Of a stretch of DNA of 64,000 nt, positions 4,029-60,474 are shown one piece after another (position 1 is the stretch's first letter; each line of letters starts with the position of its first letter). Under the pieces are notes generated by a model. That model was not told the DNA's origin. It saw nothing but the letters and a program-made list of their open reading frames with translations, and ran no database searches. The translations under genes were made by a program, and so were the position numbers. This DNA comes from Desulfomonilaceae bacterium (GTDB lineage Bacteria > Desulfobacterota > Desulfomonilia > Desulfomonilales > Desulfomonilaceae): NCBI GenBank assembly GCA_049969795.1, contig JBMFOE010000003.1, positions 11,184-75,183 of the forward strand, written 5' to 3'.

Positions 4029-4105
4029 TCGGATAATGCGCGCGACGTGAGGCCGCTCGAACGCTTGCGGAGGACGTGTTCATCTGTAATACGCGAGAAA
4101 GGTAA

Positions 4106-5401
<1,296 letters not shown>

Positions 5402-5471
5402 GCATCCTTTTCGACGACTAGGGAGGGGGCCGCAGCAGCTTTGGTTTACGGCTACTTCCTGAGCCGGGGCG

Positions 5472-6227
5472 TCACGAGCGGGAGACGCACAGCCGCTCGA
5501 TATCCCGCTGCACCTCCTTATCCTGAAACGCCGCTGGATCCTCGAGGTAACGGTTAATGACGTCCCATTCCATGGGATGCATGAATTCCTTGAGCGTGTG
5601 AATGCCCGCGGATTTGAATGGGATCAATCGCAGTAAATTCACGCCAAGCTTTTTAGCTGCCTCCTCGCCGCCTTGTTCTCGGTCAATGACCACGGCGACG
5701 ACGGAGCACACAACGTTGGGGATGCTTCGCCTGGTCAACTCATGTCTGACTTGCTCCAAGGCAATAAGTTTGCTGTCGAAACGCGTCACGAGATCGTCGA
5801 TGAGCGCGAGCCGGTCCCCCGGGACAATTTCTCCTTCCACAAGCGCATGCTCTCCATAAGATGAGATGGTTTTTTGAAGCATCTCAATATTCTTGACTCC
5901 TTCGAGCTTGCGAGTGAAGGCCGCTGGCATGTTGGCGGCAATGGCCATGCCTGCCACGAGGGGAATGCCCGCCATAGCAATGCCGACGGCCTTGTTTATG
6001 TCTGCCGCCTCTTCTTGGAGTAAGCGGCCCATGGCTTGGCAAATGAGCCGAAATCCATGAGGATAGGACAGAATCGGGCGGAGCTGGATGTACAGGGGAC
6101 TGTAAAGCCCTGAAATAAGCGTCCAGCCTGACGGTTTGTCGCGATAAAACGTTTTGATCATGCCGGCCTGATAAAGAAACGCCAGGATTTGGCGGCCAAG
6201 ATCCATTTTTTCTTCTTCCCAAGTCAT
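5472..6227 (-). CDS. orotate phosphoribosyltransferase-like (type I PRTase fold) protein
   Basis: PRPP-loop-like RLALIDDLVTRFDSK and PyrE-like N-terminal half. Start chosen at MTWEEEK (ATG 6227), not at the longer upstream ORF. Confidence 0.55.
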   Translation of the reverse strand: MTWEEEKMDLGRQILAFLYQAGMIKTFYRDKPSGWTLISGLYSPLYIQLRPILSYPHGFRLICQAMGRLLQEEAADINKAVGIAMAGIPLVAGMAIAANMPAAFTRKLEGVKNIEMLQKTISSYGEHALVEGEIVPGDRLALIDDLVTRFDSKLIALEQVRHELTRRSIPNVVCSVVAVVIDREQGGEEAAKKLGVNLLRLIPFKSAGIHTLKEFMHPMEWDVINRYLEDPAAFQDKEVQRDIERLCVSRS

Positions 6228-6499
6228 AGGGAAAACCTCGCATGAGAGAGCTTCTGTGATAGGGGGGCGGGTTGCCACGCGATGCTGAGGGTAGTATAGC
6301 AGCTCTCGAAGCAAAACGCGAATGCGTCGTCGGCGTATCTGCTCGCTTGAGATAAGCCGCCGGCGCTTGGTCGTTCGCCGCTCCTTGCAATAACACGAGG
6401 CCCTTGCCGGCGGTATCGCATGTAGGCGTAGAGCGGTTCCCCGAATGAATCACGAATTCCACGAAGCGACGCTCCATTTTGGGGCTTTTCTCTTTGTCA

Positions 6500-6577
6500 T
6501 TTTACCTGAAAACGCCATAGTTCTTTTCAGAACGGTATTTTCATCTCCCGTTGTCTCCTCTTGTCATGGGAGTTCGA
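6500..6577 (+). repeat. 78-bp intergenic repeat, copy 1 (family C)
   Basis: TTTTACCTGAAAACGCCATAGTTCTTTTCAGAACGGTATTTTCATCTCCCGTTG...TTGTCATGGGAGTTCGA recurs at 23782-23858 in the same orientation. The only differences are a few substitutions or indels and one variable 7-8 nt loop. Confidence 0.8.
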
Positions 6578-6828
6578 CAGAAATTTCGAGCCATAGTACA
6601 CAGTGATCTCTGGATATTTTTAGAAAAACGACCGTAGTCAAACGCGTTCCGCGAAACCTCGGGGAGGGGCGCGTTGCCTCGTCAAGGAACGTATTTTGGG
6701 AAGTGTAAATCCAAGTCATCGTAGAACCCGCGCAAAGCCCGCGCAGCGTCTAGGGCTTTCAATTTGACTGAGGCGCGTAAAGAGTGTAACTTTCGCATAA
6801 TGTGTGAAAACCATTGAGGATGAGTCTT

Positions 6829-8445
6829 ATGTTAAAGAACAGGCATATACTGATCATAGGCGCGCGTGCGGGGGGCTATGGCGAGGGGATAGCGAAAGCG
6901 GCTGTTCGCGGGGGCGCCACGGTGTTCGGCACCACACTAAATCCTGAAGAGCCTCGTGAGGCGGCGTTCTTTCAGGACCTGGGGATTTCTCTGGTGGAGA
7001 TCCCTTTGCGGTATGATGCGGATAAGCGGGCTGCAGTGCAAGAGCGCTGCCGGGAGATTGGGCAATACCTCAAGGCGCGAGGGGTAGATAGGCTCGATGC
7101 GGTGGTGCACGCGGTCGCGGGGGGATTCCCGCGGCAGCCGTCGGTGATGAAGGCCGTGGGCGACATTCTCAGGGGTAAGCAGACGTTCTCCGACATGGCC
7201 ACGCTCGTGAGAAAGAACGTCTATTACGTGAATGCAATCTCTTTCCAAGATACGATCGCAGGACTCCAAGACGTCTGCGACGATCAGACGCAATATGTCG
7301 CGCTGACCTATCGCGGGGAATTGCCCTATTTTATTTCAGACACCAAGAGGCATCTGGAATACATTGCTGCTCGATTGGCGCGAGAAGGCAAAAGAACTCT
7401 CGTAGTTGCCTTGCCTGAGGCGTGGACGCAATCCTCTCAATTTTTCACGGGCATTGAATTGGCAATCGTGTATAACTACCTGCAGATGAAGGACATTGCC
7501 GATGATGCGCCGCTGGACATGGGGGAATCCTTTCAGCGCATGGAGTCGTCTTTGGCTGCATTGGCTGGATGGAGCGGCGTGCTGGATTCTCTCAGGTCAT
7601 ACCTTCACGCAGAATGGGCGACCATCGCAAGCTCACAAGATTCGGCTCGGCTGTGGAACATGGTGCAAGAGCTTTTTGCTCGCATGCGCAAAGATGGAAC
7701 GTTCCCAGTGTTGAGGAAGGCAGTCGAAATTATTTCGGAATTTGTGAGAGAAGGCAGCGGGGTCATCCTCGCGAGGGAATTCCTCGCGGGCAATAAGTTC
7801 AATGCAGGCGACGTGCGTCAGGTGTTCTGTCATCACTTTGTGAGACAAAGCGAAGTTCCTTGCGCCCCGCCGCGACCACCTCGGACGGCCCCAGCAGTCC
7901 TCAGGCGGCGCTGGGTAGAGTACGACAAGGAAGAAATTCGCCAGACCCTGAAGATGTATGGCGCAAACTTTCTCTTTCTCGACAAGGTGATTATGGAGGC
8001 CGGCGGTTTCCGCAATGGCCTGATGGGGTTTGGAAAATACACGGTGCCGTCTCCCGAGACAAATCCTATTTTGAGAGACCATTTTGTGGGGATGCCGCTC
8101 TTCGGGGGTCATCTACAAATGGAAGCGGTCGCGCAACTCGGCACCTTTATGATCATGAAGCTCCTCAAAGATAGAAGGCTCGTCCCCATACTGACTGGTA
8201 CGGAATTCCCGGATCTCAATACCATGGCGCCTCCAGGAGAAACCCTTACCTTCGTGGGCGTCATGGGATTCACCAACAAGAGAGACCTATGGCTGGACGC
8301 CTTTATAGAAAACCGATATGCCAGGTCAAAGGGCGTCATCCGCGGCATGGTGTTGAATGAGCGAGTGGTGCGGAAGATGACAGCGTCTTTCGCTGAGGAC
8401 ATGACGTCGGACGACGACACGGCATTAGCTGGCTGGGAGAAATGA
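6829..8445 (+). CDS. fusion protein: FabV/FabI-like NAD(P)H Rossmann (enoyl-reductase-like) domain + FabZ/FabA-like hotdog dehydratase domain
   Basis: N-terminal ILIIGARAGGYGEGIAKA and ALTYRGELPYFISDTKRHLEY. Pro-rich linker PPRPPRTAP. C-terminal DHFVGMPLFGGHLQMEAVAQLG, a FabZ-like His/Glu motif. GAGGA RBS before ATG 6829; the ORF itself opens at TTG 6814. Confidence 0.6.
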   Translation: MLKNRHILIIGARAGGYGEGIAKAAVRGGATVFGTTLNPEEPREAAFFQDLGISLVEIPLRYDADKRAAVQERCREIGQYLKARGVDRLDAVVHAVAGGFPRQPSVMKAVGDILRGKQTFSDMATLVRKNVYYVNAISFQDTIAGLQDVCDDQTQYVALTYRGELPYFISDTKRHLEYIAARLAREGKRTLVVALPEAWTQSSQFFTGIELAIVYNYLQMKDIADDAPLDMGESFQRMESSLAALAGWSGVLDSLRSYLHAEWATIASSQDSARLWNMVQELFARMRKDGTFPVLRKAVEIISEFVREGSGVILAREFLAGNKFNAGDVRQVFCHHFVRQSEVPCAPPRPPRTAPAVLRRRWVEYDKEEIRQTLKMYGANFLFLDKVIMEAGGFRNGLMGFGKYTVPSPETNPILRDHFVGMPLFGGHLQMEAVAQLGTFMIMKLLKDRRLVPILTGTEFPDLNTMAPPGETLTFVGVMGFTNKRDLWLDAFIENRYARSKGVIRGMVLNERVVRKMTASFAEDMTSDDDTALAGWEK

Positions 8446-9527
8446 TTTCTTCAAAATGGGATCTGAGTCGATCTGCTGAAAAGGTGCATGAACTCGAGGA
8501 GTGTCTGCGGAACCAATCGGCGTCTCGCATCACCATCCTTTGTCACAACAATCCTGATCCCGATACCATTGCAAGCGCCTATGCATTTGATTATCTCTTG
8601 GCAAAAAAATTTGGGGTCCGATCTTTTATCCGCTATGGAGGCGTTATCACGAGGGCTGAAAACAAGGCCATGGTCAAGAGGCTGCGAATCAAGCTGCTCC
8701 CTTTGGAGCGAATCAAGGACGCGCCTACCGACGCGCTGGCCTTGATAGATGCGCAACCCGCTACCGGCAACAACTTGATTTTGTCGAGAGATATCGTCCC
8801 GCTCATTGTGATCGATCACCATCCTTTGAGGCGGGCGACGCAACGCTCCCCTTTTCATGACGTGAGACCCCTGTACGGGTCCACTTCCACCATCATCACG
8901 GAATACCTTGTGGCAGCGGGGCTTACGCCTACGAGATCGGTCGCCAACGCCTTGCTGTATGGACTCAAGACAGATACCGGCTCGTTGGTGCGGACGTCAT
9001 GCAAGTCTGATTTCCGAGCTTTTTCCTTTCTTTCTCCCCTCACCAATCCCCGAGTCCTGGGATGGATAGAAAAGCCCCCGTTGCCCCAGTCATATTTCGA
9101 GGACTACTGTAAAGGCTTGGCGAGCGCCGTCATCTACAAGGACGTCGCGGTATCGTACATTGGCGCAGTGGAGTCAGAAGCCATTGTCCCGGAACTCGCG
9201 GACGTGCTTCTCAGGATCGATCATGTGAGCTGGTCGCTTTGTATGGGACTTGTGGGAAGCGTGCTGGTTCTGTCTCTGCGCTCGAAGTCTCGGAAATACA
9301 AAGCAGGGGTGATGCTCAGGAAGCTCGTGGGAAAAGTAGGGTCGGCAGGTGGCCATCGAGAAATGGCGGGAGGCGTTATGCCCGTGGCCGGCATGACCGA
9401 TGATGAAATAAAGGAGCTCGGCGATGACGTGATCGAAAGGTTCCTTTCCCTCATCGGCCGGAGAGGAAATCGACCAGACAAGCTCATCCACGAAGCGTGG
9501 CGTCGCCTCGACAATCAGGGTCGTTAA
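8442..9527 (+). CDS. DHH/DHHA1-family phosphoesterase (NrnA-like)
   Basis: Motifs HNNPDPDTIAS, IDHH and DHHA1-type GSAGGHREMAGG. The start ATG overlaps the upstream stop (ATGA at 8442-8445). Confidence 0.8.
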   Translation: MISSKWDLSRSAEKVHELEECLRNQSASRITILCHNNPDPDTIASAYAFDYLLAKKFGVRSFIRYGGVITRAENKAMVKRLRIKLLPLERIKDAPTDALALIDAQPATGNNLILSRDIVPLIVIDHHPLRRATQRSPFHDVRPLYGSTSTIITEYLVAAGLTPTRSVANALLYGLKTDTGSLVRTSCKSDFRAFSFLSPLTNPRVLGWIEKPPLPQSYFEDYCKGLASAVIYKDVAVSYIGAVESEAIVPELADVLLRIDHVSWSLCMGLVGSVLVLSLRSKSRKYKAGVMLRKLVGKVGSAGGHREMAGGVMPVAGMTDDEIKELGDDVIERFLSLIGRRGNRPDKLIHEAWRRLDNQGR

Positions 9528-10345
9528 AGATCAGCCCGCGTCGACCAGTATTGCAAAAGCTGCGAGACGAGCTGCCGAGACGTGTACAGCCCTCCTGTCA
9601 TGCCTGCAAAGACGCTCTCGCCGCCAAAAAGCGCTTGAACGATCTCGTCGATCTTGCGACCTTGGCGCTTCATCTCATACGCCCGTGACGCGAGCTCGAG
9701 ATGCCAGTCCATGCAACGCGACAATCGCTCTCTCCCGTTCCTCTCGATGGTTCTCAAGGAAGTGAACAGTATAAGCCTCTCCATGGGGAGTTCGCAGAGT
9801 TTCTTCATGGATGCCAACATCTGCCCGATGTCGTTTTCAGGCGACGCGGTTCGAGGCGTCTGTCCGATATAAAGGTCGCCAGAAAATACCCATCCCTTGT
9901 CTCGTTCCACGATGCAGACATGGCCCCGGCAATGCCCTGGCGCGTCGATCACCTCGAAAGAATGCTTGCTGGTACGGATTTCACGGTGAATTGGCTGAGG
10001 AAACGATGGTTGCGGAGTCCCCCAAAGCCTCTCACGATACTCGGAAAGCGCGGGCGGCCGCTCTATGAACGGAATGGCAAGGGGATGGGCGTACAAGGGG
10101 ATATTAAAGGCATCCTGGAGGAGTCGATTTCCGCCGATGTGATCTTCGTGGTGGTGGCTGTTCACGATGAGTTCTAATTTCTGGGCGGTGAGGTATTCGA
10201 GCAGACTGGTTGCCGAATATGCGGCCCCGGTATCGATCAAGAGGCCGTCGATGAGGTATGCCGAGACCCAGTAGCGCAGACTCCCCTGGGCGTTGGAACA
10301 CATGCGTATCTGGGTTACCTCTTCAAACTGTACAATCTCCAGCAT
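9524..10345 (-). CDS. MBL-fold metallo-hydrolase
   Basis: HHHEDHIGGN (HxHxDH) motif and a later GHCRGH. Start taken at MLEIVQFEE (ATG 10345). Confidence 0.75.
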   Translation of the reverse strand: MLEIVQFEEVTQIRMCSNAQGSLRYWVSAYLIDGLLIDTGAAYSATSLLEYLTAQKLELIVNSHHHEDHIGGNRLLQDAFNIPLYAHPLAIPFIERPPALSEYRERLWGTPQPSFPQPIHREIRTSKHSFEVIDAPGHCRGHVCIVERDKGWVFSGDLYIGQTPRTASPENDIGQMLASMKKLCELPMERLILFTSLRTIERNGRERLSRCMDWHLELASRAYEMKRQGRKIDEIVQALFGGESVFAGMTGGLYTSRQLVSQLLQYWSTRADL

Positions 10346-49430: not shown

Positions 49431-49462
49431 AAAAACCCTCTCCCTTGTGGAGGGGGTTTTTT
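49431..49462. terminator. bidirectional rho-independent terminator
   Basis: AAAAA-CCCTCTCC-CTTGT-GGAGGGGG-TTTTTT: an 8-bp stem (one G-U pair), 5-nt loop, T-run downstream and A-run upstream. It sits between convergent genes. Confidence 0.75.
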
Positions 49463-49515: not shown

Positions 49516-49815
49516 TCAGGACGTCCGGCGGTAGCAACAGCGTTTATACTTCAGTCCGGAGCCGCAAGGACATGGCCCGTTCAGGGGAGGGGACAGCGGC
49601 TTTTTCTGCGTCGCTGATGTGATCTTGAGTCGTCTCGCGGCGAGGAAGTATTTGACAAGCAGATACACGGTGATGCCGCAGAATACGAGCCACACGAGGA
49701 CAAGCCCGATCGTCTCCCTTTCGTTGAACATCCCTGATGATACAAACCACCCGAGAGCGACTGTCCAAATAATCAGCCATGCCGCCGCATACCACGGACT
49801 TTTGATTTTTTTCAT
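49516..49815 (-). CDS. small membrane protein with C-terminal SEC-C metal-binding motif
   Basis: Two hydrophobic helices followed by CPCGSGLKYKRCC at the C-terminus. Confidence 0.6.
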   Translation of the reverse strand: MKKIKSPWYAAAWLIIWTVALGWFVSSGMFNERETIGLVLVWLVFCGITVYLLVKYFLAARRLKITSATQKKPLSPPLNGPCPCGSGLKYKRCCYRRTS

Positions 49816-49892
49816 ACGCTTTGGTTCTTTGCAGGCGCGGACTTTCCTTCAACGTATATCAGGTCGATACCCGTGAACGCAAGAGAACGATT

Positions 49893-49920
49893 TTGAATCG
49901 CCCTGATTTAATGGTATGCT
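49893..49920 (+). promoter_or_regulatory. candidate sigma70 promoter (extended -10) for the radical SAM-led gene array
   Basis: TTGAAT (49893-49898), 16-nt spacer ending in TGG, TATGCT (49915-49920). Lies about 35 nt upstream of the GTG 49954 start. Confidence 0.35.
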
Positions 49921-49953
49921 AGGGGCTCTACGCGTGTTTTGCAAAGGTGCGAT

Positions 49954-52362
49954 GTGGCGATTTTCCTTTTCATTAACGTCAATCATGACGTAGGGCGTGA
50001 AAGTTCGGAAAGCATTCCCATTTCCCTGGGATATGTCCTGGCTGCGGTACAGGCTGCCGGCGGCTCTGGCGTCATTTTGGATGACCTGAGAGATGGGCCT
50101 TTAACGCTGAAGACGCTTGAAAAATGGATCAGAAAGATACAGCCGGATATAGTGGGATTCACGGCGTACCAGTGTACGATGCATCGAATACGTTTCTTGT
50201 GCCGTTATGTCAAATCGCGCTATCCCCATATTCTTACCATGCTCGGCGGGCCTCAAATATTCGCCATGCCTTCACACGCGCTTTTCAACCTGCCGGATGT
50301 GGACATCCTCGTGCGTGGGGATGGCGAATACATAGTTCCTCGCCTAGCGGCTGCGCTTGATGCGGAGCGGAGTCTGGATGATGTTGAGGGAATAACCTTC
50401 CGTAGGGACGGCGAGGTGATCGACGCCAGACCGCTGCCGCGCCTAGCCAACGATCTCGATGAATATCCCTCTCCTTACTTGAAGGGAATCCTGAATCTCC
50501 AGGGAAAGACCACGGCCATTCTGCTTTCGTCCCGCGGCTGCAAACACGTCTGTCGTTTCTGCATAACGCCGAAACTTTGCGGCGGCGCGGTTCGATACCA
50601 TTCCATCGAGAGGGTGATCTCGGAGATGGAGTTCTTGGCCCGCATGGGTATCGAGCGATTCTGGTTCGCTGATCCGAACTTTACCGAAGACAAAGAAAGA
50701 ACCTCGTTGCTTTTGGAAGAAAAGATTCGTCGAGGCATAGGGACGCCTTTTTGGTGCCAAACTAGGGCGGACCTCGTTGACGCTGACATGTTGCGCCAGC
50801 TCAAACACGCGGGCGCGGACACCATTGCGTTCGGTTTGGAATCCGGCAGTCCCCAGGTCTTGCAAAAGACTGGGAAACGCATCGAACTCGATCAATTGGA
50901 AGAACACATACGCACGGCCCAGGCGCTTGGCATGGAAACGGAGCTGTTTTCGATCTTTGGGCTGCCCGGCGAAACAGTCGAAGACGCCAGACGCACAATG
51001 GAATTTCTCAAATCTCTCGGAATACCGATTCAATCGAATTCGGGTTCGCAGCAGATGCAGCTCTATTTCGGGTCGGTTTATGAGAGAGACCCAGAGAAAT
51101 TTGGCATCGTTCCAAGAAGGGAATACAGACCAGCATATTTGTCTATAGGAGAGGATTACGAAACCACCGCGATGTCAGCTCGTGACCTGGCGAAGGTCCG
51201 GAATTTATGGGCGCTGGCAAATGAACAGATGGAAACAGACGTCTATTATAAACAGCGAACGTTTGAGGTGCTGCAATTCCTGATAGAGAATCGCGACGAC
51301 CTCGCGCACGAACCGTCGTACTATGCCTACGGCGCGCTGGCATCCGCGGCCATCGAGGATTATTTCCTCCTCGAACAATTCCTCGAAGGATATGAAAGGC
51401 TTCCGTCCCACATGCGGCCGCCTACTCAAGAGCTTTTGGCAATGATTCCCTTCTTTCAAGAATCGTCAGACCCAATACAGCCACAGGACAGAGTCATATT
51501 CGACTCTCGAAGCTTCATCGATGGGATACCCTTTACTGGCATTTCCGGCAAGTATTGGGATGTCTTATTGGGGAGAGGCCTACTTTTGGAAGACTTTGAA
51601 GCGGGTTTCTTGGGCGCCCGGGCAGGTATGGCCATCGAGTTCAGTTTCGTTTTTCCGAATGATTACTTTCAAGCAGAACTCGGCGGGAAACAGGTCGAGG
51701 TGCATGCGAAGATTCACAAGGTTTTCACGCCCATCGCAATATCATCCATTGACGAACTGAAACGTACTCCATTCCGAAACAAATATTGTTTCAACGACCT
51801 GAACCTGCTGCGCGACCAAAATGAAATCCTTTATTACCTTGCGCTCAGGGATGCTGACCCTGCGACGCTCCTGAAGACCCCGACACATTTTTTGGCGTTG
51901 GTTCATAGGCTGGCGAAGCTGAGCAAGTATGAGGAGATCGGGAAGCTGGCCGCGCTTATTGCGAATAAGCCCACAGCCTTGCATGCCTTTGCAGAAACCT
52001 TAGCAGTCTGCGGAAAATACGAATGGGCGCTCCCCTACTATGAAGCCCTTTCTCATCATCTCCCCTCTGCAATGCTCAAGCAAATAAGGTGCTTATTACA
52101 CATGGGGCAGCATGAGAGAGCTGCAGCCCTCATGTCAGAGATACCCCCGAGCAAGGATTATGAATACCAGCAGGTCCTTCTTGAATGCCTCATGAAGGTG
52201 GACCCAGGATCGGAGCGCATTCCAGAACTAGAGCATCAGGTCATGGACTTGAGAGTGAAAGACGCAGTAACCAGGGAGGCTTTTGCCCGAGGAAATCATT
52301 TTGCCTCTCGTCCCGTTGTGCATGGCTTCGTTCGTGACGACGCCAGAGACGAGGAAATATAG
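49954..52362 (+). CDS. B12-binding radical SAM enzyme fused to a trigger-factor/FKBP-type PPIase-like domain and a helical C-terminal region
   Basis: B12-like N-terminus; CKHVCRFC (CxxxCxxC); residues about 515-597 (QDRVIFDSRSFIDGIPFTG...LGRGLLLEDFEAGFLGARAGMAIEFSFVFPNDYFQAELGGKQVEVHAKIHKV) align with the trigger factor PPIase domain. The ORF opens at TTG 49939; GTG 49954 has the better RBS (AAAGG). Confidence 0.8.
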   Translation: MAIFLFINVNHDVGRESSESIPISLGYVLAAVQAAGGSGVILDDLRDGPLTLKTLEKWIRKIQPDIVGFTAYQCTMHRIRFLCRYVKSRYPHILTMLGGPQIFAMPSHALFNLPDVDILVRGDGEYIVPRLAAALDAERSLDDVEGITFRRDGEVIDARPLPRLANDLDEYPSPYLKGILNLQGKTTAILLSSRGCKHVCRFCITPKLCGGAVRYHSIERVISEMEFLARMGIERFWFADPNFTEDKERTSLLLEEKIRRGIGTPFWCQTRADLVDADMLRQLKHAGADTIAFGLESGSPQVLQKTGKRIELDQLEEHIRTAQALGMETELFSIFGLPGETVEDARRTMEFLKSLGIPIQSNSGSQQMQLYFGSVYERDPEKFGIVPRREYRPAYLSIGEDYETTAMSARDLAKVRNLWALANEQMETDVYYKQRTFEVLQFLIENRDDLAHEPSYYAYGALASAAIEDYFLLEQFLEGYERLPSHMRPPTQELLAMIPFFQESSDPIQPQDRVIFDSRSFIDGIPFTGISGKYWDVLLGRGLLLEDFEAGFLGARAGMAIEFSFVFPNDYFQAELGGKQVEVHAKIHKVFTPIAISSIDELKRTPFRNKYCFNDLNLLRDQNEILYYLALRDADPATLLKTPTHFLALVHRLAKLSKYEEIGKLAALIANKPTALHAFAETLAVCGKYEWALPYYEALSHHLPSAMLKQIRCLLHMGQHERAAALMSEIPPSKDYEYQQVLLECLMKVDPGSERIPELEHQVMDLRVKDAVTREAFARGNHFASRPVVHGFVRDDARDEEI

Positions 52363-52395
52363 CTTCATTTCAGTATATCATCGGAGGATGGCCCC

Positions 52396-53229
52396 ATGGA
52401 AGAAACAGAGTCGAAGAAGCCCGCGCTGGTCGTCTATACCAGAGAAGGCGCGATTGGAATCATAACCTTGAACCGGCCGGACAAGCGAAACGCCCTGAAC
52501 CTTTCTGTGTGGTTGGATTTGGGAACTGCGGTGAGCGCCGCCGAAGCCGATGACGATGCGCGAGTCGTTCTCGTGAAGGGGCAAGGCAAGGCGTTTTGTG
52601 CGGGTTTGGATTTGAGTCCGAACAACGATATCATCTCCTATATAAGCGCTGCCCCGTCAGCGTCGCAAAAAATGGCTTTTTATAACGTGCTCAAGAAGAT
52701 CCAAGATATCCATACGAGACTGGAAAGGCTCTCGAAACCCACAATAGCGGTGATACAGGGCTATTGTCTGGGCGCTGGCCTGGAATTGGCGCTCTGTTGC
52801 GACATTCGGTTGTGTTCCGCGGATGCGGTTTTCGCGCTGCCAGAGGCGAAGCTTGCGATTATCACTGATGTAGGGGGTCTGCAGAGACTGTCCAAAGTAG
52901 TTGGCTGCGGTCATGCAAGGGAGATAGCCTTTCGAGGTCATAGATTTGACGCAGAACACGCTCGGGCCATACAGTTAGTCAATCGCGTGTATCCAGACCA
53001 CGACGCGCTGTTTCAGGAGGCCGCGAAAATGGCGGAAGAAATTGCCGCAAACCCGCCGCTGGCCGTGCAGGGAGCAAAAGACGTGCTCATGTTTACGGAC
53101 AGATTGTTCGTTTCGCAGTCTCTTGAATACAATGCAGCTCGGTCGGCCATGATCATGCCATCCGACGACTTATACGAAGCCTTTGCCGCGTTCATGCAAA
53201 AAAGAGAGGGGCAATTCAAAGGATCTTGA
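52396..53229 (+). CDS. enoyl-CoA hydratase/isomerase (crotonase) family protein
   Basis: ITLNRPDKRNAL, GKAFCAGLDL and GYCLGAGLELALCCD motifs. Confidence 0.85.
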   Translation: MEETESKKPALVVYTREGAIGIITLNRPDKRNALNLSVWLDLGTAVSAAEADDDARVVLVKGQGKAFCAGLDLSPNNDIISYISAAPSASQKMAFYNVLKKIQDIHTRLERLSKPTIAVIQGYCLGAGLELALCCDIRLCSADAVFALPEAKLAIITDVGGLQRLSKVVGCGHAREIAFRGHRFDAEHARAIQLVNRVYPDHDALFQEAAKMAEEIAANPPLAVQGAKDVLMFTDRLFVSQSLEYNAARSAMIMPSDDLYEAFAAFMQKREGQFKGS

Positions 53230-53349
53230 AAGCCATACGCCTTGGTCGCCACACATTAAGAGATGCGCGACCTTCGAGAGAAAACAAGCCAATGCGCTTT
53301 TCCATGTGCGCGCTCGGACAATGAAATTCAACGCCGCGAGGAGGATCCC

Positions 53350-55353
53350 TTGATACAGAAGTTGTTCGAACCCATTAAGATCGGCCCCATGACTGCGCCC
53401 AACAGGGTCGTCATGACCGCCATGCATCTCAACTATACCCCGGATGGCAAGGTGAACGACACCTTTCTTGAATTCTACCGCGCTCGCGCCGACGGCGGCG
53501 CGGGCCTCATCATAGTTGGCGGAGCAGAGATCAACGACCAGGCATGCGGTCTCGACTTCTTTCTCTCCATCAAAGACGACTCATGCATCCCCGGTCTCAC
53601 GAGACTTACCGACGCCATCCATGCCTCCGGCTCCAAGATCGCGATACAACTCTATATGGCAGGCGCGTATTCCTACTGCGGTCTCAAAGGCCTTCCAATC
53701 CTCGCGCCATCTGAATTTACCTCGTATTTCACCCGTCAAAAAACGACGCCCATGACAAAAGAAGACATCCACAGGGTGCAAGAGGACTTCGCCAAAGCTA
53801 CCGTGAGGGCGAAAGAGGCTGGCTTTGACGCCGTGGAAATCATTGCCTCCGCGGGTTACCTCATCTCTCAGTTTTTGTCGCCCAAGACCAACAAGAGGGA
53901 CGACGAGTATGGCGGTCCGTTGGAGAACAGAATGCGTTTCGGCGTCGAGACCATTGAAAAGGTGCGGGAGAAAGCCGGCAACGATATGGCCGTTCTCGTA
54001 AGGGTAGCAGGAAACGATTTTGTCCCGGGCAGCCACACCAACAAAGAGGCCCGTGTATTCGCTGCCGCGTGCCAGAAGGCTGGGGTCGATTGCATCAACG
54101 TCACTGGCGGCTGGCACGAGAGTCGCGTGCCGCAGATCACTATGGACTTGCCGCAGGCCGGCTACACCTATCTGGCAAGGGGCATCAAAGAAGTGGTTTC
54201 CGTGCCGGTGATCGCGTGCAATCGAATCAACGATCCTATTGTCGCCGAGGAAGTACTGAAGATGGAGGTCGCCGACCTCGTAGGAGTAGCAAGAGGATTG
54301 ATCGCTGATCCGGAGTTTGTGAACAAATCGCGTCAGGGCAAGTTCCAGGAAATTAGACGCTGTGTGGCCTGCAATCAACGCTGCTTTGACCACGTGTTCC
54401 AGCTCTTGCCGGTGGGTTGCATCGTGAATCCAAGAGCGGGAAAAGAGGCCCAGACGGTGCTCGAACCTGCATCGGTTTCCAAAAAGATTCTCGTCGCCGG
54501 CGCCGGTCCGGCCGGGTGTGAATTTTCCCTTATCGCAGCCCAGCGCGGGCATCGCGTTATCCTGTGCGACAAAGGTCAGGAAATCGGCGGCCAAGTCCCC
54601 TGGTCTGCAAAGGCTACCCAGAAACACGACTTCCATTATATCTTCGATTATTATCGGGCGGTATTGCCATCCAATGGCATAGAAATCCGGCTTGGCGTAG
54701 AGGTCACTTCTGAACTCGTGGCGCAAGAAAAGCCGGATGTGGTTGTTGTGGCCACCGGCGCGGCCCCTTTTAAGCCGCCCATCGACGCGGTGAACGCCCC
54801 AAACGTGTATCAGGCATGGGATGTGCTCAAAGGCCAGGCAGTTACCGGAAGAAAAGTAGTGGTCGTCGGGGGCGGCTCTGTGGGACTTGAAACAGCCATT
54901 TTTTTGGCCAGCAAGGGCACCATATCTCCCGAGCAGCTCTACTTTCTGACTCTTCATGAGGCGGAGCAGCCGGAGGTGCTCAGAAGCCTCATGCTCAATG
55001 GCGTCAAAGAAGTGACCGTCATAGAGATGCTTCCCAAAGTGGCGCAGGACGTGGGACCATCAACGCGTTGGGTGCTTTTGAAAGAGGTTCAGTTGCGTGG
55101 AATAAAGGTGGTGACCGGCGCGAAGATGAAAGACATAGCAGATGACCATGTGATCTACACAGACGCCAGCGGCAACGACGTGCGGCTCGAGGCGGATTCT
55201 GTTGTCTTGGCCATGGGCGCAAGGCCTGAAAATTGGCTGGCCGCGGCTCTTCAGGGTCTCGGCGTCGAGGTGAGGGTCATCGGAGACGCCAGAAAAGTAG
55301 GACGGATCGGCGAAGCCATCGAAGACGGATTCAAGCTAGCCTCTGAGTTGTAG
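53350..55353 (+). CDS. FadH / Old-Yellow-Enzyme-family Fe-S flavoenzyme (2,4-dienoyl-CoA reductase-like NADH:flavin oxidoreductase)
   Basis: OYE TIM-barrel start FEPIKIGPMTAPNRVVMTAMH. Cys cluster CVACNQRCFDHVFQLLPVGC. Two Rossmann motifs, VAGAGPAGCE and VVGGGSVGLE. TTG 53350 follows GAGGAGGA; the longer ORF from 53263 is less likely. Confidence 0.85.
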   Translation: MIQKLFEPIKIGPMTAPNRVVMTAMHLNYTPDGKVNDTFLEFYRARADGGAGLIIVGGAEINDQACGLDFFLSIKDDSCIPGLTRLTDAIHASGSKIAIQLYMAGAYSYCGLKGLPILAPSEFTSYFTRQKTTPMTKEDIHRVQEDFAKATVRAKEAGFDAVEIIASAGYLISQFLSPKTNKRDDEYGGPLENRMRFGVETIEKVREKAGNDMAVLVRVAGNDFVPGSHTNKEARVFAAACQKAGVDCINVTGGWHESRVPQITMDLPQAGYTYLARGIKEVVSVPVIACNRINDPIVAEEVLKMEVADLVGVARGLIADPEFVNKSRQGKFQEIRRCVACNQRCFDHVFQLLPVGCIVNPRAGKEAQTVLEPASVSKKILVAGAGPAGCEFSLIAAQRGHRVILCDKGQEIGGQVPWSAKATQKHDFHYIFDYYRAVLPSNGIEIRLGVEVTSELVAQEKPDVVVVATGAAPFKPPIDAVNAPNVYQAWDVLKGQAVTGRKVVVVGGGSVGLETAIFLASKGTISPEQLYFLTLHEAEQPEVLRSLMLNGVKEVTVIEMLPKVAQDVGPSTRWVLLKEVQLRGIKVVTGAKMKDIADDHVIYTDASGNDVRLEADSVVLAMGARPENWLAAALQGLGVEVRVIGDARKVGRIGEAIEDGFKLASEL

Positions 55354-55377
55354 GCCGGAGCGACAGGATGAAGAAAC

Positions 55378-57087
55378 ATGACCAGCGATTCTATAAATGT
55401 CGTCATTAGCGGCGAGGCGGGGCAGGGTCTGGCCACGATCGGCCAAGTATTCACAAAAGCTCTTGTGAAAGCCGGATATTACATCGTCGTGACGCAAAGC
55501 TATCAATCGAGAATCAGGGGAGGATGCAACGCATATTCAGTGCGGATAAGCCCCCTACCCATTGAATCGCCAGTGGAGAAGGTGGACGTTCTTGTGGCCC
55601 TTTCAGACGAAGCCTACCGCGTCAATCGGGACGCTGTCCTGGATTCGGGCCTCATCATGGCGGACGAAAAAATAGATTTATCCGGGGAGACGCGGCCCCA
55701 TACGTCCGTGAAGAGACCGGATGACGCGCGGTACTTCAACGTCTTCTTCCTGGGGGTTTTGGCGAGAGCGCTTGGCGTGGACTCGGACAGTCTTCGAGAA
55801 GCGTTGACCGAGTTCTTCGTCGGTCATCACCCTGATGCTGTGCAGAAGAATCTTGACAGCCTCGAAGAAGGCCGACAGTGGGCTTCATCGCAGCCCGATC
55901 ATATGGATCGTCCTCTGCCGACCGCGGCTCGTAAGGGATTCTGCATGATCAACGGCAATGAAGCGATCGCCATAGGCGCCATGTCGGCAGGATTGAAATT
56001 CTTCAGCTTCTACCCTATGACCCCGGCCACGTCGGTAGCCAATACCTTGGCCCCCCATGCGGCCACCATGGGTTTCCTTGTGGAGCAGGCCGAGGATGAA
56101 ATAGCCGCTATTAACATGGCCATTGGCGCATCCTTTGCCGGCGCGCCGAGTATGACGGCCACTTCGGGCGGCGGTTTCGCGCTCATGACCGAGGCGGTCA
56201 GCCTCGCGGGCATGACTGAAACGCCAATAGTTATAGTCGTGGCGCAAAGACCCGGTCCCTCCACCGGCTTGCCCACGCGGACAGAACAGGGAGACTTGGA
56301 GTTTGTGCTGCATGCAGGGCACGGCGAATTTCCGAGGGTTCTCTATGCGCCCGGCTCCGTGGAGGAATGCTTTCATCTCACCAGGGAAGCCTTCCTTATG
56401 GCCGAGAAGAGCCGTGGGCCCGTATTCATTCTGACCGACCAATTTCTGGCGGATTCATATCGTTCCGTGGAGCCTTTTGACTTGGAAGCCATCCCTTCCC
56501 TGAACGTGTGTAACGACTTGGCTTCTTCAGAAAAGCCTTTTCAGACCTACCAGATCACTGCCAGCGGCGTCTCTCCGAGACTTGCCCCCGGCCTCGTCCA
56601 ATCATGCGTACGAGCCTGGAGCTCTGAACAGCTCGCTGTGGCAGACAGCGACGAACACACCGAGGATGGCCACCTCACTGAAGATTTGCATGTAAGAAAG
56701 CTGATGGTGCAGAAAAGATGGAGAAAATTGTCAGTTATCAAGGACCATGTGCGCAAACCGCTCTTTTTCGGAGACAAAGACCCTGACGTGCTCTTGGTGT
56801 GCTGGGGCTCTTCCTTGGGCGCGGTGCGGGAAACCGTCGCTCGAAAAATCGATGAAGGACAATCCTTTGGGATGCTTCATTTTTCCCAAGTGTGGCCTAT
56901 CGTTGCCAAAGACGTTCTCCCCTATCTACAAAGCGCGAAAAGGGTAATAGGAGTAGAAAGCAACTTCACCGGTCAGTTCAGCAGGCTTCTCCGTCGAGAG
57001 ACAGGCTTCGATATTTCCGAAAGGATTCTGAGGTACGACGGGTTGCCGTTGACGTTGGAGTATGTCTTAGACCGGATTTCTGCATAG
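55378..57087 (+). CDS. 2-oxoacid:ferredoxin oxidoreductase, fused gamma-alpha subunit (KorA-like)
   Basis: Gamma-type N-terminus VISGEAGQGLATIGQVFTKAL...SRIRGG, then alpha-type INGNEAIAIGAMSAGLKFFSFYPMTPATS. Confidence 0.85.
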   Translation: MTSDSINVVISGEAGQGLATIGQVFTKALVKAGYYIVVTQSYQSRIRGGCNAYSVRISPLPIESPVEKVDVLVALSDEAYRVNRDAVLDSGLIMADEKIDLSGETRPHTSVKRPDDARYFNVFFLGVLARALGVDSDSLREALTEFFVGHHPDAVQKNLDSLEEGRQWASSQPDHMDRPLPTAARKGFCMINGNEAIAIGAMSAGLKFFSFYPMTPATSVANTLAPHAATMGFLVEQAEDEIAAINMAIGASFAGAPSMTATSGGGFALMTEAVSLAGMTETPIVIVVAQRPGPSTGLPTRTEQGDLEFVLHAGHGEFPRVLYAPGSVEECFHLTREAFLMAEKSRGPVFILTDQFLADSYRSVEPFDLEAIPSLNVCNDLASSEKPFQTYQITASGVSPRLAPGLVQSCVRAWSSEQLAVADSDEHTEDGHLTEDLHVRKLMVQKRWRKLSVIKDHVRKPLFFGDKDPDVLLVCWGSSLGAVRETVARKIDEGQSFGMLHFSQVWPIVAKDVLPYLQSAKRVIGVESNFTGQFSRLLRRETGFDISERILRYDGLPLTLEYVLDRISA

Positions 57088-57200
57088 ATGAAGGCGGCTG
57101 AATGTTCAGCGTGGCACAAGACTGACAAGACGTAGCGGCAGGGACGGGACGGCAATGTGTCGCCAAAAGAGTCGTCTTCCTTGCCCCATGAGGAGCAGCA

Positions 57201-58070
57201 ATGAGCGTCGAGACTAACACGTCGGCGGACCAGGTGTTTGGAAATTTCGAGACAGCCTGGTGTCCAGGGTGTGGAAATCATTCCATTTTAGCGGCCATGA
57301 AAAAGGCCCTGACAGCTCTCGGTTTGAAACCCTTCGAGGTCCTGTTCGTATCGGGCATTGGCCAGGCGGCAAAGGCCCCGCATTACCTGCGGGCAAACGT
57401 GTTCAACGGACTTCACGGCAGGGCTCTGCCCGTTGCAACAGGGGCGAAAATAGCCAATCCGGAACTTACTGTGATTGTAGAAAGCGGGGACGGATGTACG
57501 TACGGCGAGGGCGGCAACCATTTCCTCAACGCGATAAGGCGCAACATCGACGTGACCATGGTGGTGCACAACAATCAGGTGTATGGTCTCACCAAAGGTC
57601 AAGCCAGTCCAACCAGCATGGTCGGCTTTGTGACCAAGACCCAACCTGCTGGCGCGGTGGCAGAACCCTTCAACCCGGTCCTGGTCGCCATCGCCATGAA
57701 AGCCGGTTTCGTGGCGCGGGGCTTCTCTGGAAAGATCGATCACCTGTCTTCACTCATACAGCAAGGCGTGCAGCACAAAGGATTCTCTCTCATTGACGTG
57801 CTTCAACCCTGCGTTTCCTTTAATCATGTGAATACCTACGCGTGGTACAACCAGAGGTGCTACGAGATCGGAGCTGATCATGATCCCGCAGACAGGTCCC
57901 GTGCAATGATATTGGCTGAAGAATGGGGCGACAAGATTCCCATAGGCGTCCTTTACAAAAACGACCGACCATCATTCGAATCACACTTCCCTTTCTTGCA
58001 ACGAGGGCCCTTGGCGTCGCAACCGGCGAACATGGAGACGTTAAAGTCCATTGTGAAGTCCTTTCAATGA
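57201..58070 (+). CDS. 2-oxoacid:ferredoxin oxidoreductase beta (TPP-binding) subunit (KorB-like)
   Basis: WCPGCGNHSIL and the TPP motif GDGCTYGEGGNHF...NNQVYGLTKGQ. Confidence 0.9.
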   Translation: MSVETNTSADQVFGNFETAWCPGCGNHSILAAMKKALTALGLKPFEVLFVSGIGQAAKAPHYLRANVFNGLHGRALPVATGAKIANPELTVIVESGDGCTYGEGGNHFLNAIRRNIDVTMVVHNNQVYGLTKGQASPTSMVGFVTKTQPAGAVAEPFNPVLVAIAMKAGFVARGFSGKIDHLSSLIQQGVQHKGFSLIDVLQPCVSFNHVNTYAWYNQRCYEIGADHDPADRSRAMILAEEWGDKIPIGVLYKNDRPSFESHFPFLQRGPLASQPANMETLKSIVKSFQ

Positions 58071-58116
58071 GCCAGACTGCCAACCCCAGGCCGCATGACA
58101 AAGTAAGGAGCGAACC

Positions 58117-58899
58117 ATGACGAACACAGAAGCAGCGCAATTTATCAGTGACAATCTCCGGTTAAAGACAGCCCCCATTGCTGTCCGTTTTTTGCGGGCG
58201 GGTGAGGCGTTCCCAGAGAATTGTCGAAGACCTTCCGCACACTTGGGCAAGCGCATCACCATCTGTCAGGCGGTCACCATGGCCAGGGTTTACTCCTGGG
58301 AGCTTGGCTTGGACAAAGAAGACCTTATATGCGTACCGGCCATGATCACCTTCGGCTTCACGAGGGCCTCCCGTCCTATGGACACCCTTGCAAAGCTTTT
58401 TTGCGACGTCGGCTTTGCCGAGCATGCGGACGGCGCTGCAAGAGAGACGTCCAGCATGTATTCTTTGGAAAAAGAGAACCAGCATGGCATCTTGCTGGGG
58501 CCCTTACAAAAGGCGGAATACGAGCCGGATACAGTGTGCTTGTACGGCAATCCCGCGCAGATCATGCGCCTCATCCAGGCGTGGACCTTTCACTCGGGCC
58601 TCAGGGTAGATGGCCATTTCGGAGGCAAAGTGGAATGCACGGAATACTTGTTGGCGCCCTTCAAGACAGGAATGCCTCGGATCGCCATCCCCGGCATGGG
58701 CGACAGAATCTTTTCCATGACCCAAGATGAAGAAATGGTCTTCGCCCTGCCGGGCGCCGCGCTGGAGCACCTCGTGATCGGCCTGCGCAATGCCGGGCGC
58801 AAAATAGGCGCAAGATATCCCATTACCTTTTATCAGAATTTCCAGCCCGAGTTTCCCAAACCATACAAAGTGGTTGCAGACGAGCTGGAACTCTTCTAG
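58117..58899 (+). CDS. DUF169-like protein of unknown function
   Basis: Size and pattern (LKTAPIAVRFL...ITICQAVTMAR...VPAMITFGF) match my recollection of DUF169. Not verified by search. Confidence 0.5.
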   Translation: MTNTEAAQFISDNLRLKTAPIAVRFLRAGEAFPENCRRPSAHLGKRITICQAVTMARVYSWELGLDKEDLICVPAMITFGFTRASRPMDTLAKLFCDVGFAEHADGAARETSSMYSLEKENQHGILLGPLQKAEYEPDTVCLYGNPAQIMRLIQAWTFHSGLRVDGHFGGKVECTEYLLAPFKTGMPRIAIPGMGDRIFSMTQDEEMVFALPGAALEHLVIGLRNAGRKIGARYPITFYQNFQPEFPKPYKVVADELELF

Positions 58900-58984
58900 G
58901 CCATTGCGGGAGGCCCCGAGACGCCGCATTCGTGACCAGAAATGCACGAATAGGGCCGGTACAGACGCAAAGGAGGTTCTTTTC

Positions 58985-60055
58985 ATGGAAGATGTGTATA
59001 AACGACTGGCGCGCAAATTAGACGAGCTGCCGAACGGCTATCCTGAAACCGAATCGGGCGTGGAGCTGAAAATCCTTAAAAAGATCTTTAGCCCTGAAGA
59101 CGCGGAAATGGCCCTCAAGATCAACCCGTTTCCCGAGACTGCTGAAGCCATAGCCCAACGTTTGGCGCTGCCCCTGGATGAAATGCAAAAAATACTCGAC
59201 CGCATGGTTGAGAAGGGACAAATCGGATCGGCCCGTTTGAAGGGGGAGCAGGTGTATATGCTCGTACCATTTATCGTAGGCATCTTTGAATTCCAACTCA
59301 ACAGATTGGACAAAGAACTCGCCGACCTGGTCGAAGAATATGCGCCGTCGTTGATGACAACCGTGGGCAAGGTCCCGCCCGCGGTGATGCGAGTGGTTCC
59401 TATCAATGCTCAGATCAGGGGCCAGCAAGAGGTGCATCCGTACGAAGACATAAGGCAGACTTTGGGAAAGGCGAAATCCTTTCAGGTCATGGACTGCATT
59501 TGTAGAAAAGAAGCCGCGCTTCAGGGACACCCATGCAAGCACCCCATTGAAGTATGCTTGTCCTTTTCTCAGCATGAAGGCGCCTTTGACAGGTACCACA
59601 TGGGACGAATCATCACCAAGGACGAGGCCCTTGCGGTACTGGACAAGGCAGAAGAAGAAGGGCTCGTTCACTGCACGTACAACGTCCAGTCCGGTCAGAT
59701 GTTTGTCTGTAATTGCTGTCCCTGCTGTTGCGGGATCCTCCGGGGCGTCAAGTACTTCAAAGCCCCTCATCTCATGGCGAGGAGCAACTATGTGGCATAT
59801 ATTGACCCGGATGTCTGCGTGGCATGCGGAACCTGCGCCGACGAAAGATGCCCCATGAAGGCCATCAACGAGGGAGAAAGCGCGTATCAAGTTGATCCAG
59901 AGCGGTGCATTGGGTGCGGGGTGTGCACGACGACGTGTCCCACCGATGCGATCTCCCTGTTGAGAAAGCCCGAAGAGCTTCAAGAACAACCCCCTAGAAA
60001 CATTGTCGAGTGGTATATGCAACGAGCCGCCAACAGGGCAGCCTCGGCGCACTGA
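58985..60055 (+). CDS. Cys-rich Fe-S protein with C-terminal 2x[4Fe-4S] ferredoxin domain
   Basis: CVACGTCADERCP and CIGCGVCTTTCP, plus upstream MDCICRK...CKHPIEVC and FVCNCCPCCCG. RBS AAGGAGG before ATG 58985. Confidence 0.65.
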   Translation: MEDVYKRLARKLDELPNGYPETESGVELKILKKIFSPEDAEMALKINPFPETAEAIAQRLALPLDEMQKILDRMVEKGQIGSARLKGEQVYMLVPFIVGIFEFQLNRLDKELADLVEEYAPSLMTTVGKVPPAVMRVVPINAQIRGQQEVHPYEDIRQTLGKAKSFQVMDCICRKEAALQGHPCKHPIEVCLSFSQHEGAFDRYHMGRIITKDEALAVLDKAEEEGLVHCTYNVQSGQMFVCNCCPCCCGILRGVKYFKAPHLMARSNYVAYIDPDVCVACGTCADERCPMKAINEGESAYQVDPERCIGCGVCTTTCPTDAISLLRKPEELQEQPPRNIVEWYMQRAANRAASAH

Positions 60056-60090
60056 AGCATGCCCGGCGCATCCAGAAAAGAGGGAGTACC

Positions 60091-60474
60091 ATGCGAGAAG
60101 CGCCTGACAAGGCCGCTCAAGAAGCCAACGCGGCAGGAACCCCGACGCGTACGCTCCCGGAGTTCGTTGATACCTACTATGCCGGCTGCACCATGGTGGT
60201 ATCTTCTCCGGTAGATATTTGCGTATATTTCGGGCGATACACGTTGAAAGACCTTGAGAGCGGCCGTCCCGGCCTGGTGCAGGTTTTCGAGAAGCAGGTG
60301 TATCTCACGCCAGAGGAAGCTGAACGCGTGGGCCAAGCGATACTCAAGACCGTCCAAGTGTTCAAGGCGGCGCAAAGAGGCGAACTCAAGGCGGGCGCGA
60401 GCCAGACGTCGGGGACGCAATCTGTCAACCCGGATCCTCTCCTCTCTAATCGGGACGACCTTATCAAAGTCTAG
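60091..60474 (+). CDS. DUF3467-like small protein
   Basis: YYAGCTMVVSSPVDICVYFGR ... KQVYLTPEEAERVGQAILKTVQVFK follows the DUF3467 pattern as I recall it. RBS AGAGGGAG. Confidence 0.45.
   Translation: MREAPDKAAQEANAAGTPTRTLPEFVDTYYAGCTMVVSSPVDICVYFGRYTLKDLESGRPGLVQVFEKQVYLTPEEAERVGQAILKTVQVFKAAQRGELKAGASQTSGTQSVNPDPLLSNRDDLIKV

Follow-up and report, generated by a model that had tools for sequence, protein, structure and literature searches.

We analysed a DNA stretch of 64,000 nt from a Desulfomonilaceae bacterium (contig JBMFOE010000003.1; the whole stretch is called the window in the following) and focused on an array of eight genes on its plus strand. According to the listing of open reading frames (ORFs) and their translation, the array spans positions 49954-60474. 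It encodes, in this order, a radical S-adenosylmethionine (SAM) enzyme fused to a predicted peptidyl-prolyl isomerase (PPIase) domain, a crotonase-fold enzyme, a FadH-type iron-sulfur (Fe-S) flavoenzyme (referred to as the reductase), the two subunits KorA and KorB of a 2-oxoacid:acceptor oxidoreductase, a DUF169 protein, a cysteine-rich Fe-S protein and a small DUF3467-like protein. The gaps between the genes are 33, 120 (33 if the reductase starts at ATG 53263), 24, 113, 46, 85 and 35 nt, and the nucleotide composition is uniform. This layout had been proposed before by a model that read the letters only (the original prediction), and its coordinates, gaps and domain assignments were all reproduced with the ORF listing, Pfam and NCBIfam, except that the DUF3467 match stayed below the Pfam threshold.

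The original prediction regarded the eight genes as one dedicated module. This view was supported in part only: korAB, the DUF169 gene and the Fe-S gene are absent from most loci that contain the first three genes, and their relatives are found in unrelated contexts elsewhere. We lean, if only just, towards a composite array, in which units of different age are probably carried on one or two mRNAs in this lineage, and against a single dedicated pathway.

Conservation of the three-gene core and of the seven-gene block

The distribution of the genes was studied in a scan of a genome collection seeded with the radical SAM protein (80 loci with 10-kb flanks) and in a metagenome scan seeded with the DUF169 protein (80 loci). 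All proteins of the window were mapped onto the loci, every neighbouring ORF was clustered, and a maximum-likelihood tree of 68 radical SAM proteins was calculated. Among the 68 related radical SAM loci, 51 Desulfomonilaceae loci are informative, and 43 of them have the same order: a gene for a SEC-C protein on the minus strand, followed in divergent orientation by the genes for the radical SAM protein, the crotonase and the reductase. The latter three genes (the trio) were found under at least five differing upstream and downstream contexts, with median aligned-end gaps of approximately 91 and 56 nt, and two additional assemblies have gene calls consistent with their order. The trio, at least, is also present in the cultured Desulfomonile tiedjei. 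According to the composite reading, the trio and the divergent SEC-C gene would be an old core, ancestral to the Desulfomonilaceae.

A looser relationship can also be considered. In this case no link would exist beyond the crotonase-reductase and korA-korB pairs, the radical SAM-PPIase protein would act alone, for instance by modifying proteins in concert with the SEC-C protein, and the remaining adjacency would be inherited. In other orders, homologues of the fusion protein (36-40% identity) share its whole architecture but have no crotonase or reductase gene nearby; their neighbours are genes for a YcaO-TPR fusion and a DsrC-like protein, for PrmA, or for deacetylases and acetyltransferases. 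In addition, some Desulfomonilaceae genomes harbour a second radical SAM copy without partners (L021 beside L018, and L068 beside L017). These two observations weaken the case for a dependence of the radical SAM protein on enzymes acting on coenzyme A (CoA) esters. Further, the SEC-C gene is still beside the radical SAM gene at three loci where the crotonase and reductase genes were lost (L011, L051, L062). However, the trio has been retained amid a wide variety of flanks and its gaps are short, and a spacer of promoter size between the radical SAM and crotonase genes is unusual (33 nt in the window). We regard the absence of such links as doubtful.

The genes behind the trio show a different distribution. 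The korAB, DUF169 and Fe-S genes follow the reductase gene only in the window and at L001, L002, L052, L085-L089, L097/L098 and L167. On the tree, the seven full-length array loci form one clade (SH-aLRT 99.8), for which one change of state suffices, and this argues for a single gain of these genes. They are missing beside the trio in 26 of the 33 informative trio loci. In one assembly (GCA_016212925.1) the trio is on one contig, while a Fe-S homologue with 70% identity is on another contig and lacks both DUF169 and korAB as neighbours. Outside the clade, the sampled relatives of KorA, of the DUF169 protein and of the Fe-S protein, with 55-70% identity, are located in unrelated neighbourhoods. 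Co-occurrence in other genomes, which was named as a test in the original prediction, was thus found family-wide for the first three genes, in one clade only for seven genes, and in the closest relatives only for all eight. For the second half of the array, this distribution and the unrelated contexts of the relatives are outcomes that the original prediction itself had named as refuting it.

These data bear on the possibility that the seven or eight genes serve one pathway after all, in which the radical SAM enzyme would functionalise an unactivated C-H bond, the CoA ester would be processed by crotonase and reductase, and KorAB and the Fe-S protein, together with the DUF169 protein, would deliver electrons at the level of ferredoxin. 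In line with this, the genes are tightly spaced on one strand, with 24-28 nt between the reductase gene and korA, and KorAB lacks a ferredoxin subunit of its own while a protein with a ferredoxin domain is encoded nearby. Moreover, the seven-gene block is kept in seven distinct loci of the clade although the flanks have changed. For example, at L167 all seven genes are present with gaps of 28-99 nt, but both flanks are new, with genes for a methyltransferase, a phosphatidylserine decarboxylase and a glycosyltransferase upstream and for a glycogen phosphorylase downstream. Nevertheless, we consider such a pathway unlikely. The block has a single origin, its additional genes are missing from the majority of the informative trio loci, the Fe-S homologue of one assembly is on a different contig from the trio, and the sampled relatives of KorA, of the DUF169 protein and of the Fe-S protein beyond the clade are found among unrelated genes. 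At L091, two unrelated genes encoding a 1586-aa TPR/ATPase and a 503-aa ATPase are located between korB and the DUF169 gene. Finally, the reductase appears to depend on NAD(P)H (see below), and the DUF3467-like gene is not conserved with the block.

The two-gene insertion at L091 (positions 3610-9878) resembles a mobile or defence-type cassette: the 1586-aa protein has TPR, cold-shock-like and P-loop parts, and the 503-aa P-loop protein ends in an RNxxxH-type motif.

The radical SAM-PPIase fusion and the SEC-C protein

The first gene of the array (49954-52362, plus strand, in an ORF open from 49939) probably starts with GTG 49954, because the orthologous proteins begin at residue 9 of the ORF. 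In its product a B12-binding domain (PF02310, 46.5 bits) lies N-terminal to a radical SAM core (PF04055, 84.4 bits), both over the cut-off, and in the translation the CxxxCxxC motif of the core reads CKHVCRFC. Judged from these domains, the protein is a class B (cobalamin-binding) radical SAM enzyme. It shares the B12-binding domain and the CxxxCxxC core with TokK, CysS, the Mmp10-type protein methylases and BchE, and its best solved relatives are AprD4, CysS and TokK. None of the NCBIfam equivalog models was approached, the best score being 126 bits against a cut-off of 750.

Unlike these class B enzymes, the protein carries in addition a predicted PPIase domain of the trigger factor type and a helical tail. 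Residues 509-625 match positions 144-257 of the trigger factor model TIGR00115 (E 6e-17), and trigger factor PPIase domains in the PDB match as well, with E values from 4e-7 to 7e-6, while the FKBP models of Pfam gave no match in the protein at E<=0.01. At E<=1e-10, a search among 1.84 billion cluster representatives detected the C-terminal module consisting of the PPIase domain and the tail in only 36. Those matched over their full length have about 763-800 aa. Of the remainder, the majority are shorter and seem to be fragments, and in a few cases the match is to the PPIase domain of a trigger factor. Weaker matches of the module are nearly all trigger factors.

The surroundings of the distant homologues were inspected as well. 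At L063-L066 (for example L066:3721-5457), homologues with 36% identity are encoded directly 3' of the YcaO-TPR fusion gene and beside the DsrC-like gene, which suggests that the context of this radical SAM family is the modification of proteins or peptides. At L074 (5563-6498), L077 and L064, a gene for a PrmA-type (ribosomal protein L11) methyltransferase adjoins the homologue, and at L074 and L077 a gene for a CxxCxxCC-domain protein is present upstream. The chaperone-type domain and the YcaO and PrmA neighbours give a hint, on thin evidence, that the substrate may be a protein or peptide rather than a CoA ester.

The SEC-C gene (49516-49815, minus strand) encodes a predicted membrane protein of 99 aa with two helices and the SEC-C zinc motif at the C-terminus; PF02810 was matched by its orthologues. 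It is divergent from the radical SAM gene in most Desulfomonilaceae loci. In 34 loci (between L003 and L069) the gene before it encodes a protein of about 190 aa that is rich in proline, has a hydrophobic N-terminus and matches no Pfam model. In the window, genes for a cytochrome c3 and HycI take this place upstream of the SEC-C gene.

The crotonase and the reductase

The crotonase gene is located at 52396-53229 on the plus strand. For its product (PF00378, ECH_1, 164 bits) superfamily membership alone is secure. The protein resembles a dienoyl-CoA isomerase: it aligns without large gaps to the rat and human enzymes, shares with rat dienoyl-CoA isomerase (ECH1/DCI, 1DCI) a long loop, and has Glu, Glu and Asp at the positions of rat DCI Asp176, Glu196 and Asp204. 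The Asp eight residues past the catalytic Glu is a trait of dienoyl-CoA isomerases which is not found in hydratases; in the hydratase 5ZAI this residue is Gly.

The reductase gene (53350-55353, plus strand, with an alternative start at 53263) probably starts with TTG 53350, which yields a protein of 667 aa, because the orthologous reductases have this length. The protein matches PF00724 (Oxidored_FMN) and PF07992 (Pyr_redox_2), and residues 33-694 of the query align to residues 4-669 of E. coli FadH (1PS9) with E 3e-122. As in FadH, an OYE/FMN barrel is followed by a CxxCxxxCx11C motif for a [4Fe-4S] cluster (RCVACNQRCFDHVFQLLPVGC, aligned with the FadH motif) and then by the FAD and NAD(P)H domains; both GxGxxG dinucleotide motifs are present. 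Tyr166 and His252, which are catalytic in the E. coli enzyme, are kept. Since the Tyr/His pair and both dinucleotide motifs are kept, the electron donor of the reductase is probably NAD(P)H and not ferredoxin. The assumption that this FadH-type enzyme needs low-potential electrons is not supported: the enzyme is collinear from end to end with the NADPH-dependent FadH of E. coli, and no sign of a dependence on ferredoxin was seen.

The second-best solved relative is 2-naphthoyl-CoA reductase (NCR, 6QKG, E 1e-102), and the best NCBIfam models are those of BaiCD, mycofactocin OYE2 and BilR. NCR and the BaiCD/BilR-type Fe-S flavoenzymes have the same three-domain architecture, but all NCBIfam scores of the reductase are far under the cut-offs (for example 506 versus 825 bits). 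A role in a benzoyl-CoA, naphthoyl-CoA, bile-acid or bilirubin pathway was considered and dropped, because the equivalog scores are far under the cut-off and the companion genes are absent nearby.

Dienoyl-CoA isomerase and 2,4-dienoyl-CoA reductase are an auxiliary pair for conjugated dienoyl-CoA esters. We infer that the crotonase and the reductase may act as such a classical pair. In contrast to ECH1/DCI and FadH, the array genes are adjacent to each other and located behind the gene of a B12-binding radical SAM enzyme, and in contrast to the auxiliary pair of beta-oxidation, genes for acyl-CoA dehydrogenase, thiolase and ligase are lacking in the array. In the literature we found no described pathway that matches the trio, and no mention of the gene combination of the array in Desulfomonile, in agreement with the original prediction.

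KorAB, the DUF169 protein and the 18-Cys protein

The korA gene (55378-57087) and the korB gene (57201-58070), both on the plus strand, encode a two-subunit oxidoreductase. KorA is a fused gamma-alpha subunit with the Pfam domains POR, POR_N and PFOR_II (TIGR03710, 610 bits versus a cut-off of 483), and KorB is the thiamine pyrophosphate (TPP)-binding beta subunit with the domains TPP_enzyme_C and PFO_beta_C (TIGR02177, 364 versus 262 bits). A delta subunit is missing in the Pfam architecture, as had been predicted for this enzyme. The same arrangement is found in the KorAB-type 2-oxoglutarate:ferredoxin oxidoreductases, and KorA matches the enzyme of Magnetococcus marinus (6N2N) over its full length with 282 bits. 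In Thauera aromatica, KorAB serves benzoyl-CoA reductase; in contrast, no benzoyl-CoA reductase is encoded at this array. A single literature search gave no paper on the residues that determine substrate specificity. From these similarities, KorAB is predicted to oxidise a 2-oxoacid and to reduce an external ferredoxin, with 2-oxoglutarate as the substrate of the closest structural match. The identity of KorA is 68% inside the clade and drops to 53-60% in thousands of proteins. Two homologues with 55-57% identity were looked up, and their genes are neighbours of rpsI/rplM and of a second korAB.

The DUF169 protein (58117-58899, plus strand; Pfam) belongs to a family with about 70 invariant positions, and homologues with 58-66% identity occur in many unrelated metagenomic contexts. 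A conserved partner gene was sought and rejected: the neighbours encode an O-methyltransferase, GyrA, GpsA, a thioesterase, an ankyrin protein, a deacetylase, an aldehyde dehydrogenase or an asparaginase. The structural model is confident (pLDDT 84.5), and a fold search with it in the PDB gave no relative (best E 0.15, TM 0.19). In the literature no function of DUF169 was found.

The Fe-S protein (58985-60055, plus strand, 356 aa) consists of a winged-helix N-terminal domain, a cysteine-rich middle and a ferredoxin domain with two [4Fe-4S] motifs. It has 18 invariant cysteines, those of the ferredoxin domain and ten further ones: C171, C173, C184 and C191 in one group and C242, C244, C245, C247, C248 and C249 in the other. 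Thus the description of a protein with two ferredoxin motifs and extra Cys clusters was accurate. In the AlphaFold model (pLDDT 84.6) a MarR/SmtB-like winged helix and the ferredoxin domain are recognised, and a fold search matched these two ends only, the middle with the ten cysteines having no solved relative. The protein could be the electron acceptor of KorAB. Its family is large, with 3265 homologues, many of which, from different phyla (Abyssubacteria, Hydrogenedentota), exceed 60% identity; the mean column identity across phyla is 73%. Here too a conserved partner was rejected, since in three phyla the neighbours are an acyl-CoA synthetase, GlcD/CCG proteins or Memo. A Hydrogenedentota genome (L081) harbours three further paralogues in tandem.

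The last gene (60091-60474, plus strand, 127 aa) was named DUF3467 in the original prediction. A small gene is indeed adjacent, but the match to PF11950 is weak (21.1 bits versus a gathering threshold of 25, E 3e-4), and the gene follows the Fe-S gene in the closest relatives only and belongs to none of the conserved blocks. At L025 (9053-9430), a trio-only locus in a different part of the tree, a DUF3467-like gene with 37% identity was found once, about 350 nt 3' of the reductase gene. This may be due to chance, or it may be a trace of an older link.

Transcription signals and possible functions

Upstream of the array, a hairpin followed by a T-run and preceded by an A-run is located at 49436-49462, between the convergent genes for cytochrome c3 (plus strand) and the SEC-C protein (minus strand). 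Because of the A-run, this terminator can work in both directions, and it is common to the two genes. The bidirectional terminator of the original prediction was thus recovered; however, the array does not directly adjoin it, since the SEC-C gene lies between. A candidate promoter is present at 49893-49920 on the plus strand (TTGAAT, a 16-nt spacer and TATGCT, with TG upstream of the latter as in extended -10 promoters). It scores 8/12 and stayed under the threshold of our promoter scan. On the other hand, an extended -10 block, TTTAATGnTAT, is conserved in register in six loci with about 60-90% protein identity, and in the divergent spacer between the SEC-C and radical SAM genes (49816-49953) the conserved sequence has the form GCAAnnnAA...TTTAATGnTAT. 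Either an extended -10 promoter or a regulatory site common to both genes would fit this sequence.

Internal terminators or structured spacers were rejected. None of the array spacers folds better than shuffled sequences or contains a terminator-like site, the few sites of the scan on the plus strand are all intragenic, and the total of 15 sites is not in excess of the 12.9 expected from shuffles. Riboswitches or other RNA elements were not detected with Rfam at E<=1. The tight packing, the lack of internal hairpins stronger than in shuffled sequences, the conserved promoter-like block and the persistence of the seven-gene block under new flanks make co-transcription plausible in this lineage, and the array is probably co-transcribed here. 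The public runs that hold the stretch are DNA metagenomes only, with no RNA runs.

On the basis of sequence comparison, the following model of the composite array can be proposed. From the conserved extended -10 promoter, the core consisting of the B12-binding radical SAM-PPIase fusion, the crotonase and the FadH-like reductase would be expressed, with the SEC-C gene in divergent orientation. The crotonase would shift or hydrate conjugated double bonds of enoyl- or dienoyl-CoA, and the reductase would then reduce the diene, with electrons passing from NAD(P)H through FAD and the [4Fe-4S] cluster to FMN and with the Tyr/His pair providing for protonation. In the sub-clade, an ordinary-looking korAB, the DUF169 gene and the gene for the winged-helix, Cys-rich ferredoxin protein would have been added directly behind the reductase gene. 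KorAB would convert a 2-oxoacid to acyl-CoA and CO2 with reduction of an external ferredoxin, the Fe-S protein could be its acceptor, and the reduced carrier could also serve the cluster of the radical SAM enzyme. The DUF3467-like gene would be a recent neighbour.

Several points weigh against this model. Breaks in the trio occurred at least six times, and since it is confined to one family, some of its synteny may reflect inheritance and not selection. The partner-less second radical SAM copies belong here as well. Conversely, the conservation of seven genes at about 60-70% protein identity despite changed flanks could mean selection for a joint function. Because no transcript data were found, the operon structure is deduced from the spacing only. 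At the protein level, the crotonase does not reach the cut-off of its best NCBIfam model (PRK06142, 273 versus 308 bits), and its first catalytic position is Glu as in hydratases, where DCI has Asp. In the reductase, FadH Glu164 is replaced by Ala, as in NCR.

It is tempting to speculate, though we hold it to be quite unlikely, that the trio, or in this clade the seven-gene block, constitutes an undescribed anaerobic route. In such a route the PPIase domain of the cobalamin-dependent radical SAM protein would bind a substrate attached to a protein or a carrier, perhaps with the membrane SEC-C protein as a partner, while an unactivated carbon is modified; the product or a released acyl-CoA would be passed to the crotonase and the reductase, and KorAB with the 18-Cys protein would be a private supply of low-potential electrons.

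The composite reading matters for several reasons. The target for experiments is the three-gene core conserved in a bacterial family of anaerobic dehalogenators and sulfate reducers, and not an eight-gene module. The radical SAM-PPIase fusion is rare and without a described relative, and in this lineage two widespread and very conserved proteins of unknown function, the DUF169 protein and the 18-Cys winged-helix protein, are encoded beside the trio. If the trio is one pathway, it would be a new way of joining radical chemistry to the processing of enoyl-CoA; otherwise the locus would represent ordinary metabolism packed together. The fusion protein, DUF169 and the 18-Cys protein are worthwhile targets individually.

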